Made by a program: the position numbers and the translations under genes. Below the pieces are notes generated by a model. It had not been told where the DNA came from, searched no databases, and worked only from the letters and a program-made list of their open reading frames with translations. Below are positions 8,555 through 14,313 of a stretch of DNA of 64,000 nucleotides, piece by piece (position 1 is the stretch's first letter; every line of letters starts with the position of its first letter). Origin of the DNA: Bacillales bacterium (GTDB taxonomy: Bacteria; Bacillota_I; Bacilli_A; Izemoplasmatales; UBA1188); assembly GCA_016287865.1 (NCBI GenBank), contig JAEEXP010000003.1:701-64700 (forward strand), read 5' to 3'.

Positions 8555-11500
8555 ATGAAATTTAGAGGTATTTTTACAAGAATTTTTAGAATGTTTGCAT
8601 TCTTAAACTTATTATTCTTTGTAGGTGCATTCCTAACTGGCGTTATGCCTATAATCAAGACTACAAAGAGATTCCAAAACCCAACTTCTAGCTTCTATGT
8701 ATATGGTCTTGAAACAAAAGAAAATATAACACTATATACAAGTGACGGAAGCTCTGGTGCATGGAAAAGATCTAATGAATTTGATGGAGCATACGGCTGG
8801 GTTGACTCAGGTAAGACATTAGAAATAGAATTAGTTGACGAAAATTTAGAGGGCTGGTATAAATGCGGCGATAGTGAACCAATTCATCTAATGAAAGTTG
8901 ATAGTGATAACTTAAAATTAAATGGTATTCCATTAGCAAAAGACTCATTAGAAAATCTTCCTAAAGTATATATTAGTGATGAAAATGATGAAACTGCATA
9001 TAGCATAAGACAAATTAGTGATTCATATAATAAATATATGGGAATAGATGTAATTTCTAAATACGAAGTTCAATTACCAGTTGAATCAACTGCTGATTAT
9101 CAAAGTGAAATAAGTGGTCAAACAGTATGGGTTGGCACAACACATCTTAATAAAATGGAATTATGGACAATACCTGTTGCAGACCCATCAACTTATACTG
9201 GTTATCAATATAATTTCCCAGAATCAATAAAAGCATATATTGCTAATGATGGTATTAGGTTTGCTGTAAAGATGGCAAATAATCAGAGATCATTAAATAT
9301 AGCTGCTGATATTCAATTATCAATACAATCTGCAGTATGTCCAATGTTTGGTAATTTTGACCCAGATCATGCACAAATATCTGCAGTTTTAACTGATGAA
9401 CAGTTAGATTTTGTCTATATGAAGGCTGCACCATATAATGCCTCTGAAGAAGATAAAGACTTATCTCCATCATTCTCATTTACTCCAGGTACAAAAGTAG
9501 ACTTAATGGCTATTGGTTCTGTAGGCGATACTCCTATATTTAGCAATAATACAGGAAATAACGTAGGATCTGATGGTGTATATGAAAGAGGAAGATTCAA
9601 TGGAGTAGATAACGTAGTAGTAAGTTCATATAACGTTGATACAGGAATGTCTTTATCGTGGGCTAATCTCACTCCAGGAAGTGAAGTTAATTTCACTATT
9701 CAAGTGGGAAAAGCATCAACTCTTAAAAAATTTAAGACTCCAGAAGAAATCGTTACTGAATTAATCGATGAAATCGGAACTGTAGAATATACAGCTGAAT
9801 CAAAAGGAAAGATTGAAGCAGCAAGAGAAGCATATGATGCATTAGATGAAACAGCTAAGGCAAATGTTGCTCAAGAAAAAGTTAATGCACTTATTAAAGC
9901 TGAAGAAGATTATTTCAAAGCTAATGTTAATTCATTAAAACCAATTGCTGATTTAAAACACACAACAGCAGCAAACACAGCAATCAATGAAGCACTTAGC
10001 TATTACGATGGTTTAAGTGAAACACAAAAAACAAATGTTGAAGAAGAACATACTGTATTATTAAGTGCAAAAGATAAATATGAAGCAGAAGGCGTAGTTG
10101 ATTTAATTGGCAAAATTGGTAATGCTAATTATCTAACAACTGATACAAAGATTGTTGCAGCTAGAGAAGCTTACGATGCATTAACAGATGATCAACAAGC
10201 TTTAGTTTCTAACTACAACACACTTGTAGAAGCAGAAAATATATACGCAGCTAAACAGGTTAATACATTAATTAGTAATATTGGCACAGTTACTTATCCT
10301 TATAGTGAAAACACTATTAAGAACGCAAGAGAGGCTTATGACGCTTTAACTGAAGACCAACAAGCTCTAGTTTATTACTATGATAGATTAGTTGGTGCTG
10401 AAAATGAATTCGAAGCTCAAAGAGTTGAAGAATTAATCAGTATGATTGGCACAGTAACTAATCCAGAAAGTAAAGAAAAGATTGATGCAGCTAAAGAAGC
10501 TTATGCTGGTTTAACTGATGATCAAAAAGAATTAGTAAGTAACTATAATACGCTTGAACAAGCAGTAAATAAATATGAAGCACTTGGTGTTGTAGCATTA
10601 ATTGATGGTATTGGTGAAGTATCTTATCCTACATCAAAAGAAGCTATTGAAGAAGCAAGAGAAGCATATGATGCTTTAACTGAAACCCAAAAAGAACTTG
10701 TTACAGATGATAAACTTCAAGTATTAGAAACTGCTGAAGATACATTTGAAGTTCAAGAAGTTGTATCTTTAATTGAAAGTATTGGTGAAGTTACTTACCC
10801 AGCAAGTAAAGAATTACTTGAACAAGTTAGAGAAGCTTATGACCATTTAAGTGAAAGCCAAAAGCTATTAATTGAAAACAAAGAAAAGTTAGAACAAGCT
10901 GAAGAAGAATACGCTCGTCAAGAACAAGAAGCTAATCCAGATCCAACTCCTGGAGTAGATCCAACTCCTGGAGTAGATCCTACACCTGGAACCGATCCTA
11001 CTCCTGGTACTGATCCAACTCCTGGAACTGATCCAGCACCTGGCACAGATCCAACTCCTGGAACTAATCCAGAACCTGAACAAAACCCTGGCGGTCAAGA
11101 TGGTAAGGGCGGAAAGAAGAATCATGGATTCTGTATTGGTTATATTGTAATGATCGCAAGTATCTTAGGATATTTATTCATATTCTTATTTACTATCTTA
11201 AGATTTAGGTTATTTAAAGAATTGGCTAAGAAATGTAATTTAGATAAGCTCTATCCAAAGACAAATCTATTTGAATTCATTTCATTAATAGTATCTTGTG
11301 TATTGTTCTTATTCTCATTGATTGTACTCATAATCCATCAATGTCCAATTACTATAATCTTCTTTATCCTAGACTTCTTAGTATTCGCAGGTATGATAGT
11401 TCTATTCATCATTGATAAACATCTTAATAAAGATGAAGATGATGAAGAAGAAAATAAGAAATCAGCTAAAAAGAACGCTCAAGAAGCTCCTAAAAAGGTA

Positions 11501-11814: not shown

Positions 11815-14313
11815 ATGATGAGACTTAGAGGTATTTTTACAAGAGTATTTAGAATGTTTGCATTCTTAAACTTACTATTTTTAGTAGGTGCATTCCTTAC
11901 AAGTTTTATACCTAGAATTAAAACAACAAAAATGAATAAACAAGCAACTCCAGATTTTTATATTTATGGAGCTGAAGAAACTGTTTTTGATGACAATAAC
12001 AATCTTACTAAAGACGACTTAACATTATATACAAGTGATGGAAGCTCTGGAACTTGGAAAAAGTCCGCGACAAAAAATGGAACTTATACAGATGTTAGTA
12101 CTGGTACATCACTTGTGTTAGGTAAAGATGATAGCGATGTAGCAGGTTATTGGTTTAAGTGTAATAATAGTGAACCAATTCGCGTATTAAGAAGCGTAAA
12201 AGAAAATCGTAAATATACAATCGATGGTATGATTGCAACAATATACACTTCATGCCAATGGTTTGTAACTGGAAAAGATGAAAATATTGCATATCAAATT
12301 GTTACATGGACAGATGAAAACAATAGAACAACTTCATTTATTAATATAATTGCAAAATACGATGTTCAAATGCCTATTAGTGATGATGAAAATTACCAAA
12401 GTGAGTATGCTGGAGAAACTATTTGGATTCAAACATCATATACTGATAGTTGGAAATTATTTGGTACAGAAGATGAGAATCCAACAAGTGACTCATATGT
12501 AACTTTAATATCGGATACAAAAGCTTACGTCTCAAATGATGGAGTTGTATTTACATCAAAACTTGGTGAAAACCAAAAATCTATGTGTCTTTATAACGAT
12601 GTACAATTAGCAGATGATGAAGCAATAACAACATTATTTCCAGGATTTAATCCAGATAAGGCACCAATATATGCAGTCTTAAAAAATGAACAATTAGATT
12701 ATATTTATATGGTTGGTGCTCCACGTTCTGCAAGCGAAAATTTAAAAGCATTAGCTCCTGCTTTCACCCTTGCTCCAATTAACCAGGCTGACATGCTAGA
12801 CGTTTGTGCTTTGAGTCAACTTTATCGATTCTATACAAATAAAAATGAGAGAGAAACATACTTATATGATAGATTTAATGGGATAGATAATGTAGTAGTA
12901 GGAGCATATAATGTCGATACTGGTCTATCTGTTTCTTGGATTAATCGAAACCCTGGAGATGAAATCAGCTTTGTCATTAATGCTGGTGTGACATCAGGTA
13001 TGTCACAACTTAAATCTCCAGTTCAAAAAGTAAAAGATTTAATTGATGATATAGGAGAAGTTGAATATACTCCTGAATCAAAGGAAAAAATTGATGCAGC
13101 AAGAGAAGCATTTAATGAATTAGATGCAACAGATAAAGCATCAGTAGATGCAACAAGGTTAGCTCAACTTGAAAAAGCTGAGGAAGATTATTTCAAAGCA
13201 ATGGTTGAAGCATTAAAACCATTCACAAGTATTGAACATACAGCTGAAGTTAATGCAGCAATCGAAGAAGCAACAGAATACTATAATAATCTCAGCAGTG
13301 ATCAAAAGGCCAATGTTTCAAGTAGTTACAATGATTTACAAACTGCTAAAGATAATTATATTGCTAAAGAAGTAGAAGATTTAATTGATGGTATTGGTGA
13401 AGTTGAATATACTCCTGAATCAAAAGCTAAAATTGATGCAGCAAAAGAAGCATATGACGCTTTAACTCCTGCTCAAAAAGAACTTGTATCTAATTATACT
13501 GATTTAGTTGAATCAGAAGAAACATATGAAGCAAAAGAACTTGTATCTTTGATTGAAAAAATAAACGATCCAACTAATCCAGCAACTAAAGAAGAAATAG
13601 AACAAATGAGAGAAGCATATGATAGTTTATCTGAATCTCAAAAATTATTAGTCACAAACTATGAAATGCTTACTCAAAAAGAAGATGAATTAAAAGCTGA
13701 AGAAGTTAAAGATTTAATCGAAGCTATTGGTGAGGTTGAATATACTCCAGAATCAAAAGCTAAAATTGATGCAGCAAGAGAAGCATATGACGCTTTAACT
13801 CCTGCTCAAAAACAATTAGTACTTAACTATGAAAAATTAACTACTGCTGAAGGTGTATATACTCAAAAGGCACAAGGAACTCAAACAGATCCTACACCTG
13901 GAGTAGATCCTATACCTGGCGCAAACCCAGAAAACCCTACTGAAAAAGGTGATAATGAAGGTGATAAACGTCATGGTTTCTGTGCTGGTTATGTTGTAAT
14001 GATTGTTAGTATTTTAGGATATTTATTTGTATTCTTATTTGCTATCTTAAGATTTGGATTATTTAAAGGCTTAGTTAAGAAGTGTAATCTTGATAAACTC
14101 TATACTAAGACAACTTTATTTGAATTCATCTCAGTATTTGTATCTGGCGCATTATTCTTATTCGCACTAATTGCATTAGTGTTCCATCAATGCCCAGCTG
14201 CTATAGTATTCTTTATCTTAGATTTCTTAGTATTTGCTGCTGTATTAGTTCTATTCATTATTGATCAACAACTCAATAAGAAGTCTGAAGAAGTAAAAGA
14301 AGACAAAGAATAA
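11815..14313 (+). CDS. Large surface protein, paralog 2 (5 helical modules, short DPxPG spacer, C-terminal 3-TM anchor)
   Basis: 832 aa. The second ATG at 11818 gives the same 7-nt RBS spacing as paralog 1 and is probably the true start. Confidence 0.85.
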   Translation: MMRLRGIFTRVFRMFAFLNLLFLVGAFLTSFIPRIKTTKMNKQATPDFYIYGAEETVFDDNNNLTKDDLTLYTSDGSSGTWKKSATKNGTYTDVSTGTSLVLGKDDSDVAGYWFKCNNSEPIRVLRSVKENRKYTIDGMIATIYTSCQWFVTGKDENIAYQIVTWTDENNRTTSFINIIAKYDVQMPISDDENYQSEYAGETIWIQTSYTDSWKLFGTEDENPTSDSYVTLISDTKAYVSNDGVVFTSKLGENQKSMCLYNDVQLADDEAITTLFPGFNPDKAPIYAVLKNEQLDYIYMVGAPRSASENLKALAPAFTLAPINQADMLDVCALSQLYRFYTNKNERETYLYDRFNGIDNVVVGAYNVDTGLSVSWINRNPGDEISFVINAGVTSGMSQLKSPVQKVKDLIDDIGEVEYTPESKEKIDAAREAFNELDATDKASVDATRLAQLEKAEEDYFKAMVEALKPFTSIEHTAEVNAAIEEATEYYNNLSSDQKANVSSSYNDLQTAKDNYIAKEVEDLIDGIGEVEYTPESKAKIDAAKEAYDALTPAQKELVSNYTDLVESEETYEAKELVSLIEKINDPTNPATKEEIEQMREAYDSLSESQKLLVTNYEMLTQKEDELKAEEVKDLIEAIGEVEYTPESKAKIDAAREAYDALTPAQKQLVLNYEKLTTAEGVYTQKAQGTQTDPTPGVDPIPGANPENPTEKGDNEGDKRHGFCAGYVVMIVSILGYLFVFLFAILRFGLFKGLVKKCNLDKLYTKTTLFEFISVFVSGALFLFALIALVFHQCPAAIVFFILDFLVFAAVLVLFIIDQQLNKKSEEVKEDKE
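13033..13830 (+). repeat. Helical-module coding repeats in paralog 2, including about 110-bp near-identical copies
   Basis: 13381-13492 and 13714-13825 are roughly 90 percent identical by eye (..IGEVEYTPESKAKIDAA(K/R)EAYDALTPAQK..). A third, more diverged copy lies at about 13033-13120. Confidence 0.8.

Follow-up and report, generated by a model that had tools for sequence, protein, structure and literature searches.

The window analysed here, a 64,000-nucleotide stretch of contig JAEEXP010000003.1, carries two adjacent open reading frames (ORFs) on the + strand directly after tpiA, ORF A (8555-11584; 1009 amino acids, aa) and ORF B (11815-14313; 832 aa), which encode large proteins of one common plan: an N-terminal hydrophobic segment, a head, a series of helical modules, a spacer of DPTPG type and a C-terminal three-helix membrane module. 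BLASTP aligns the two proteins at 44% identity across 690 aa (E = 0), and their C-terminal 468 aa at 47%. An earlier reading of this DNA, hereafter the original prediction, had proposed this five-part architecture and a direct comparison of the two ORFs as a check. That comparison, run at the DNA and protein levels with BLASTP, DNA alignment and a module identity matrix, confirmed both ORFs, the motifs they have in common ([ED]VQ[LM]P at the end of a longer motif, YQSE..G.T.W and RFNG.DNVVV..YNVDTG.S.SW), the seven versus five modules and the difference in spacer. Protein identity varies by part, from ~36% in the head and ~50% in the helical region to 70-74% in the C-terminal module, and the N-terminal segments are near-identical (24 of 27 residues the same). 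At the DNA level, the 215 bp upstream of the start codon and the first ~110 bp of coding sequence are 87-90% identical. A similarity search of the 64-kb window returned these two copies and no third. On these alignments, A and B are tandemly duplicated paralogues.

The helical modules, ~55 aa each, were delimited by inspection and alignment. Their consensus is V..LI..IG.VEYTPESK.KI..AREAYD.L...QK.LV.NY..L..AE..Y.A., and the internal repeat matches among them range from E 1e-23 to 1e-46. In the identity matrix, positional pairs are found for A1/B1 (60%), A2/B2 (45%) and A7/B4 (60%), while B3 and B5 are 71% identical, indicating an internal duplication in B. The matrix thus gives a module order that differs between A and B, in line with the mosaic build suspected earlier. 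The model of B shows the modules as helices with high confidence (predicted local distance difference test, pLDDT, 80-93), each unit consisting of a helix of ~15 residues, a short helix and a helix of ~22 residues; as judged from the DSSP string, the long helix would run on into the next unit, giving a rod. The modules matched none of FIVAR, GA or DUF1542 in Pfam. The spacer that follows holds in A ~8 occurrences of (D/N)PTPG(T/V) and then a Gly/Lys-rich stretch, and its DNA is an 18-nt tandem repeat of 7.1 copies (10938-11064; Tandem Repeats Finder, TRF). The spacer of B has about two units, and its residues 688-723 are disordered in the model. Repeats prone to size change are thus present in the form of the 18-nt unit and the module number, and they differ between the paralogues, the comparison being one between genes only.

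Hydropathy gives each protein one N-terminal and three C-terminal hydrophobic segments, and the AlphaFold model of B has three C-terminal helices. The C-terminal module is laid out with HGFC at the outer end of the first transmembrane segment (TM1), a K/R-rich loop, TM2, an HQCP turn and TM3. Across an alignment of six such modules H-G-F-C and H-x-C are invariant, the family-wide motif being (S/A/N/R)HGFC(I/V/A)G at the start of TM1, a basic loop, TM2, an H-x-C turn and TM3. This anchor is common to P0002, P0006 and P0007, three of the head relatives described below, and to an ORF of locus L081, and an anchor profile search added four proteins, all C-terminal fragments (P0014-P0017; E 1e-21 to 1e-32). 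Contigs carrying anchor matches (L085-L087) hold a further tandem gene pair, with 83.5% identity between its tails over 878 bp. In L085 a proline-rich spacer and a small beta domain are joined in each tail to the HGFC three-helix module and an acidic end, and the two heads are unrelated to each other, to A and to B, one of them having GLUG motifs. Since unrelated heads stand on the same tails, the HGFC three-helix cassette, in many cases with a proline-rich spacer and a small beta domain ahead of it, is on sequence grounds a general anchor for different heads, previously undescribed and without a library name. Tetraspanin, the MMSYN1_0478 'MFS transporter' and YidC were considered for the module; their scores lie far below the cut-offs and were taken to reflect hydrophobic composition.

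Three observations on other carriers of the cassette are recorded here. The fragment P0014 is named 'MFS transporter' by NCBI. The first gene of the L085 pair (6372-8558; also in L086 and L087) has an in-frame TAA where its paralogue has AAA (VKLI*TEGG versus VKLIKTEGG); this codon is present in contigs of three samples and would yield an anchorless secreted head and a separate 185-aa membrane piece. P0002 (L083, 5112-8063) has an extra cytoplasmic domain after the anchor (residues ~912-980) with a weak YjbR-like match (E 0.007, below cut-off), a hint that an intracellular domain can be joined to the anchor.

The N-terminus carries 4 K/R and 0 acidic residues before a 22-residue hydrophobic stretch; the TM1-TM2 loop has 6-7 K/R (2 negative), the TM2-TM3 turn is the short HQCP, and the tail is Lys/Glu-rich. 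The positive-inside rule is the basis for orienting membrane segments. Applied to this charge distribution, it places a middle part of ~820 residues in A and ~680 residues in B outside the cell, with the loop and tail in the cytoplasm, an internally consistent topology that we infer from the charges. The charge counts thus agree with the original prediction in putting the bulk of the protein outside rather than in the cytoplasm. The predicted cytoplasmic tails are short, of low complexity and not conserved between A and B.

The N-terminal segment would direct export and then be either cleaved off or retained as a signal anchor. Neither A nor B has an A-x-A site before the head, and the N-terminal helix is modelled in B with pLDDT < 50. 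Relatives have A-x-A directly before the head start (e.g. AYA followed by DSDFYIYG), and the HGFC cassette also occurs with ordinary signal peptides. Of the double membrane anchoring originally proposed, the one N-terminal and three C-terminal hydrophobic segments therefore stand, but not double anchoring as a trait of the family. An obligate four-helix unit, in which the N-terminal segment would pack with the C-terminal three, is likewise an unlikely family trait, given that the cassette is also found with ordinary cleavable signals. There is no lipobox pattern and no Cys in the first 45 residues of A or B, a regular-expression search for LPXTG/SPKTG-type motifs found none in A and only 'IPGAN' within the proline spacer of B, Pfam gave no S-layer homology (SLH) domain, and Pfam and NCBIfam gave no signalling domain in either protein.

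The head of A is modelled by AlphaFold as an all-beta structure (pLDDT 86.7; predicted template-modelling score, pTM, 0.89). Against the PDB, Foldseek aligned it with the N-terminal beta-supersandwich of glycoside hydrolase (GH) family GH92 mannosidases, of GH94 cellobiose phosphorylase and cyclic glucan synthase, of GH116 enzymes and of GH65-type phosphorylases (E 6e-5 to 1e-3, probability 0.94-1.0, sequence identity 8-12%), and an independent full-length model of B returned the same list. This galactose-mutarotase-like sandwich is the best structural match for both heads, and the best match in a viral structure library was also a GH65 protein, not significant. The models suggest that the head consists of an immunoglobulin-like (Ig-like) subdomain and a beta-supersandwich of the type that would bind carbohydrate. 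Whereas in the GH65, GH92, GH94 and GH116 enzymes a catalytic barrel follows the sandwich, A and B have the 55-aa helical repeats, the spacer and the transmembrane segments in its place; neither the models nor Pfam, which gave no GH match, show an (alpha/alpha)6 or equivalent barrel after the head, and the head has no conserved acidic pair. Pfam and NCBIfam returned no above-cut-off match for A or B apart from a marginal one to DUF3106 (25.7 bits, cut-off 24.3), which covers two stalk modules of B. The head thus belongs to no named family in these libraries, as had been suspected, and matches no housekeeping family.

An exhaustive phmmer search over 1.84 billion representative proteins gave only 13 matches. 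They comprise ORF B, a fragment that is 87% identical to A, P0002 and P0004-P0007 as the five true family members (E 1e-13 to 1e-47) and six weak matches (E ~1e-4). The close set spans E 1e-13 to 1e-67, and at E <= 1e-10 there are 7 relatives including ORF B. Among the weak matches, five (P0008-P0011 and P0013) represent surface proteins of Clostridial type, whole or in part; P0012 was rejected as an unrelated repetitive protein. Profile-profile comparison aligned the head with the Clostridial head over 293 columns, the whole head (hhalign 99.5%, E 1.6e-22), a similarity that we read from these alignments as true homology across the whole domain. The head-domain family, ~330-360 aa long, then comprises A, B, P0002, P0004-P0007, the L081 ORF and the Clostridial proteins of the P0008-P0013 set. 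Its members come from ruminant metagenomes, and most carriers have just one copy, in genomic contexts that are unrelated. The heads of the relatives are attached through SLH domains (P0008), an SPKTG-type C-terminal signal (P0009) or a single transmembrane segment (P0013, P0004).

Other searches with these proteins added little. Sequence searches of the PDB with the head profile, the stalk and the module profile gave chance-level matches only, among which a DnaJ helix was rejected at E >= 0.1. Head peptide patterns found no relative in species-representative genomes and led to one locus in a metagenome scan. A word-indexed protein search with the head, as sequence or profile, gave no match, but it also missed ORF B in the same collection and is thus no sign of absence. 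A phage or defence-system origin was rejected, the viral structure library, PHROGs, PADLOC and viral contigs having given nothing meaningful.

Upstream of the genes, the terminator hairpin of tpiA is copied after ORF A, so that each gene is preceded by one copy and the duplicated unit runs from terminator to terminator. Both genes have a promoter-like core, TTGCGC-N17-TATTAA, which is invariant in a third copy of the region (L082, see below); it was assigned by eye as a putative promoter. An 18-bp perfect palindrome, CTTCATATTAATATGAAG, overlaps the -10-like element of both genes (8485-8502 and 11749-11766). It has only these two occurrences in the 64 kb, is invariant in L082 and may be an operator for some regulator. 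A GGAGG ribosome-binding site stands at 8543-8547 for A and is present upstream of B as well. Rfam gave nothing relevant on the 5' leader. We observed no invertible element at the promoter, the inverted pairs being terminator hairpins, the short palindrome and weak, chance-like matches, and the longest single-base run in the upstream sequences, judged by eye, is 7 nt.

We then compared the locus with its counterparts in other assemblies. In the rumen genome RUI277 (L001), positions 1-1398 align by blastn with window 7047-8446 at 97.1% identity and positions 1399-10506 with window 14265-23373 at 90.4%, the 5.8 kb in between being absent. At the junction, the upstream region is retained along with the final ~15 codons of a B-like gene, and this 3' remnant indicates a deletion rather than primitive absence. 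Homologous recombination was rejected as its cause, as the two sides of the junction, one in the upstream region and one in the tail of ORF B, share at most 3 bp. A further rumen metagenome gave L082, a contig of 1.1 kb that matches ORF A at 92% identity and has 94 bp deleted, which breaks the frame. In assembly GCA_016648615.1, ORF B is 100% identical on one contig. Among related strains the locus is therefore deleted or disrupted; it is variable, as the original prediction expected, and by these comparisons it is an accessory locus, lost or inactivated in some strains. Assembly GCA_016648615.1 also holds the distant member P0006 (1020 aa) on another, 50-kb contig, followed by an 897-aa protein without Pfam match and a 1520-aa Flg_new-repeat protein, a neighbourhood in which the same organism may have a second cluster of surface proteins.

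Between A and B, synonymous (dS) and non-synonymous (dN) divergence amount to 0.51 and 0.10 in the N-terminus (dN/dS 0.19), 1.24 and 0.57 in the head (0.46), and 0.66 and 0.16 in the C-terminal anchor (0.23). Between strains, the head of A in the window and in L082 differs by dS 0.235 and dN 0.048 (dN/dS 0.20), and the housekeeping genes compared with L001 give dS 0.103 and dN 0.002 for tpiA (0.02) and dS 0.076 and dN 0 for rpsD (0). By these estimates the head is constrained, more loosely than housekeeping genes, without overall positive selection and with purifying selection between strains. With a head dS of ~1.2 the pair is old by this measure, and recent divergence finds no support in either the paralogue or the strain values. 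One upstream segment is the same in A and B within this genome, both differing there from the A copy of L082, which points to gene conversion between the paralogues.

The gene between pgk and tpiA, encoding an XRE-type helix-turn-helix (XRE-HTH) and cupin regulator, was used to place the host. Its closest match is RUI277 (100%), followed by metagenome-assembled genomes from sheep, yak and cattle rumen (79%), Anaeroplasmataceae (66-68%) and Acholeplasmataceae (~60%). This sequence evidence puts the host, an uncultured bacterium of the rumen, in the Anaeroplasma/Acholeplasma radiation, and by analogy with that radiation it is probably wall-less. The record of RUI277, JAILNJ010000113.1, is titled 'Gammaproteobacteria bacterium RUI277', yet it is 90-97% identical to the low-GC, Mollicutes-like window, and the label is probably wrong. 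The pgk-regulator-tpiA order (window 5805-8323) is kept in 25 of the 25 loci checked and conserved in Anaeroplasmataceae, Acholeplasmataceae and relatives; the regulator may be a lineage-specific one for glycolysis genes.

Downstream of tpiA, gpmI/eno had been expected as the usual neighbours. Most of 24 relatives examined (loci L002-L025) instead have a convergent rpsD there, often within 60-200 bp, or else unrelated cargo in between, the tpiA-rpsD interval ranging from ~60 bp in L002 and L003 up to ~5 kb in others. In the window this interval (8324-17224) holds the A/B pair and two oxidoreductase genes, of FAD/NAD/2Fe-2S type (14354-15526) and FAD amine-oxidase/desaturase-like (15516-17207), both also present in L001. 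Neither the head nor the anchor was found within 10 kb in any of 80 related loci. This absence and the tpiA-rpsD slot together mark the pair and the two oxidoreductase genes as inserts in a variable slot, and the A/B pair is, on this comparison of loci, a lineage-specific insert. There is no recombinase among the neighbouring ORFs.

Table 1. Features of the A/B locus (window positions)
Feature	Position	Strand	Evidence
Terminator hairpin after tpiA, first element of duplicated unit	8337..8368	+	Terminator scan
Upstream region of ORF A: promoter-like core, palindrome, GGAGG	8441..8554	+	~90% identical to region upstream of B
Segment absent from L001	8447..14264	.	blastn, junction alignment
ORF A aa 1-36, putative signal or anchor	8555..8662	+	Hydropathy, charge counts, identity to B
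ORF A head, aa 37-392	8663..9730	+	AlphaFold, Foldseek, hhalign
ORF A stalk, seven modules	9731..10909	+	Inspection, alignment; helices confident in model of B
ORF A proline/threonine-rich spacer	10910..11122	+	TRF; matching B region disordered
ORF A C-terminal anchor, aa 857-953	11123..11413	+	Hydropathy, invariant motifs, charge counts
ORF A predicted cytoplasmic Lys/Glu-rich tail and stop	11414..11584	+	Translation; topology inferred
Terminator hairpin after ORF A, reads as terminator on both strands	11604..11629	.	Terminator scan, copy of tpiA terminator
Upstream region of ORF B: same core, palindrome, GGAGG	11705..11814	+	Alignment to A region
ORF B aa 1-37, putative N-terminal signal or anchor	11815..11925	+	Hydropathy, charge counts
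ORF B head, aa 38-398	11926..13008	+	Similarity to A; same Foldseek matches
ORF B stalk, five modules; B4 corresponds to A7	13009..13869	+	Alignment, model of B
ORF B short proline-rich spacer	13870..13971	+	Translation, model of B
ORF B HGFC three-helix anchor, aa 720-817	13972..14265	+	Hydropathy, alignment, model of B
ORF B short predicted cytoplasmic tail and stop; sole part of pair left in L001	14266..14313	+	blastn, junction alignment
Hairpin between ORF B and convergent oxidoreductase gene; terminator on - strand only	14326..14355	.	Terminator scan, inverted repeat

Two further groups of envelope genes lie in the window. Adjacent paralogous lipoprotein genes with a lipobox Cys (18190-19476 and 19720-21054; 428 and 444 aa) precede ABC permease and ATPase genes and probably encode a duplicated substrate-binding protein; the first of them, the only one of the pair scanned, has no Pfam match. 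A second unannotated envelope cluster (35942-43082) encodes a zinc-ribbon membrane protein, a 468-aa multi-transmembrane protein, a 991-aa lipoprotein without Pfam match and a 548-aa transglutaminase-core protein, none of them related to A or B. The cytoplasmic end of P0002 was compared with ORF 36943-38349 of this cluster, and P0006 with the 991-aa lipoprotein; neither pair is related.

Overall, we consider it probable that A and B are accessory, adhesin-like surface proteins of head-stalk-anchor type whose membrane anchor is of a new kind, and that their rumen host probably has no wall. This reading is built on the architecture, the homologies, the logic of the topology and the strain differences, and would extend from these to surface display, ligand binding, promoter and operator roles and a wall-less host. 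Each gene would be an independently transcribed, terminator-bounded unit with its own promoter-like core, palindromic operator-like site and strong ribosome-binding site. The N-terminal hydrophobic segment would direct export, and the C-terminal three-helix cassette would hold the protein in the membrane, with HGFC and HxC on the outer face and the K/R-rich loop and tail in the cytoplasm. Outside the cell, the proline-rich spacer and a rod of five or seven modules would bear the Ig-like and beta-supersandwich head, for which ligand binding is the likeliest role, with a glycan of plant material or of other cells as the probable target. A and B would then present different heads at different heights, their 5' and 3' ends being kept alike by functional constraint and gene conversion.

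Several points weigh against this reading. The matches to the N-terminal domains of glycoside hydrolases have template-modelling scores of only 0.22-0.28, with a root-mean-square deviation of ~16 Å over multi-domain alignments, and the conserved residues of the head are mostly structural. If the N-terminal segment is kept, the head adjoins the membrane and does not sit at the tip of the stalk. The wall-less state is taken only from the nearest named relatives, and the frameshift of L082 could be an assembly error in a 1.1-kb contig.

The closest functional analogues in our comparison are the phytoplasma Vmp, Amp and IdpA proteins and the head-stalk-anchor proteins of walled Firmicutes. IdpA has a transmembrane segment at both ends, and Amp and VmpA have a cleaved signal and a C-terminal one (PMC10003417); VmpA is a lectin-type adhesin (PMC8160148). 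VmpA/Vmp1, Amp and IdpA, from wall-less Acholeplasmatales that are relatives of this organism, resemble A and B in their N-terminal signal or anchor, large exposed hydrophilic region and C-terminal membrane anchor. A and B differ from them in being much larger and in having the supersandwich head, the 55-aa modules and the three-helix HGFC anchor instead of a single transmembrane segment. Pfam and NCBIfam gave no above-cut-off match to a Vmp/Amp/Imp/IdpA-type family, a result of library scans with no direct sequence comparison made. The proteins of walled Firmicutes, attached by sortase/LPXTG or SLH and including the uncharacterised Clostridial P0008-P0013, have the same order of head, repeat stalk and C-terminal anchor, and their head is homologous; A and B add a proline-rich spacer between stalk and anchor and have the three-helix membrane cassette in place of LPXTG/SPKTG or SLH.

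Conserved ends and a modular middle had originally suggested a variable surface-antigen locus of the kind found in Mollicutes, in which A and B would be switched or reshuffled at high frequency, by recombination at the ends, repeat slippage or promoter switching, in response to phages or host antibodies. Mycoplasma Vlp/Vsa/Vsp and phytoplasma Vmp behave as such programmed variable antigens, the former being surface lipoproteins with conserved ends, in-frame tandem repeats and size differences, in large families that switch. A and B share with Vlp/Vsa/Vsp the conserved ends, the in-frame tandem repeats and a size difference between copies, and the idea gains from their diverged modular middle with its differing module number and order, from an 18-nt in-frame repeat prone to slippage, from the gene-conversion trace upstream, from the loss and disruption among strains (L001, L082) and from the second tandem pair (L085), with swapped heads on a common tail. 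However, A and B are two old paralogues (head dS ~1.2), not a large family, with two copies only in 64 kb; they have no lipobox, and no switching device was found in the window, there being no inverted repeats bracketing the promoter, no recombinase among the neighbouring ORFs and no upstream single-base run above 7 nt as judged by eye. The head is under purifying selection between strains (dN/dS 0.20), and ORF B is 100% identical in a second assembly. A programmed system of this kind was thus not borne out, and we regard it as unlikely.

The preferred reading, that of accessory adhesin-like proteins, also has to be weighed against a structural one, in which A and B would form an abundant, non-adhesive coat or spacer layer replacing a wall or S-layer, with the head serving lateral self-association. 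The strong ribosome-binding site and individual terminators, the rod-like helical stalk, the homologous heads on SLH-anchored Clostridial proteins and the probably wall-less host would all suit such a layer, but a close strain does without the entire locus, relatives are scarce (7 at E <= 1e-10 among 1.84 billion representative proteins, counting ORF B) and most carriers are single-copy in unrelated contexts, which makes a coat quite unlikely in our view. Transmembrane sensors or enzymes, with a carbohydrate-active or -sensing head or a His/Cys three-helix module engaged in signalling or metal/redox chemistry, are highly unlikely: the fold is like the domains next to the catalytic barrels of glycoside hydrolases and phosphorylases, H-G-F-C and H-x-C do not vary and P0002 has a weak YjbR-like cytoplasmic domain (E 0.007), but A and B lack both a catalytic (alpha/alpha)6 domain and a conserved acidic pair, their cytoplasmic tails are short, of low complexity and not conserved, and the family scans returned no signalling domain.

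The locus is real and had no annotation, yet it follows a familiar design of head, stalk and anchor. To our knowledge, almost nothing is known of how surface proteins are attached, or of the dealings with plant fibre, microbes and phages, in the uncultured, probably wall-less relatives of mycoplasmas that live in gut and rumen. In this setting the locus brings together an unnamed head domain common to Clostridial surface proteins and found on anchors of four or more types, a three-helix anchor, likewise unnamed, with invariant His/Cys motifs that carries at least three unrelated heads, and a natural set of variants among close strains, with the pair intact, the pair deleted or a gene disrupted. 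Taken together, head, anchor and variants make function testable, with recombinant heads and rumen meta-omics. More tentatively, as a conjecture to which we give limited credence, the HGFC cassette could be a dedicated surface-protein anchor of wall-less gut Bacillota, a membrane counterpart of LPXTG and SLH whose outer His/Cys pairs form a metal site or a disulphide, and whose conserved DNA is a landing pad for the exchange of heads by homologous recombination, allowing populations to diversify their surface. If the anchor is general, it would improve the annotation of surface proteins in these lineages.

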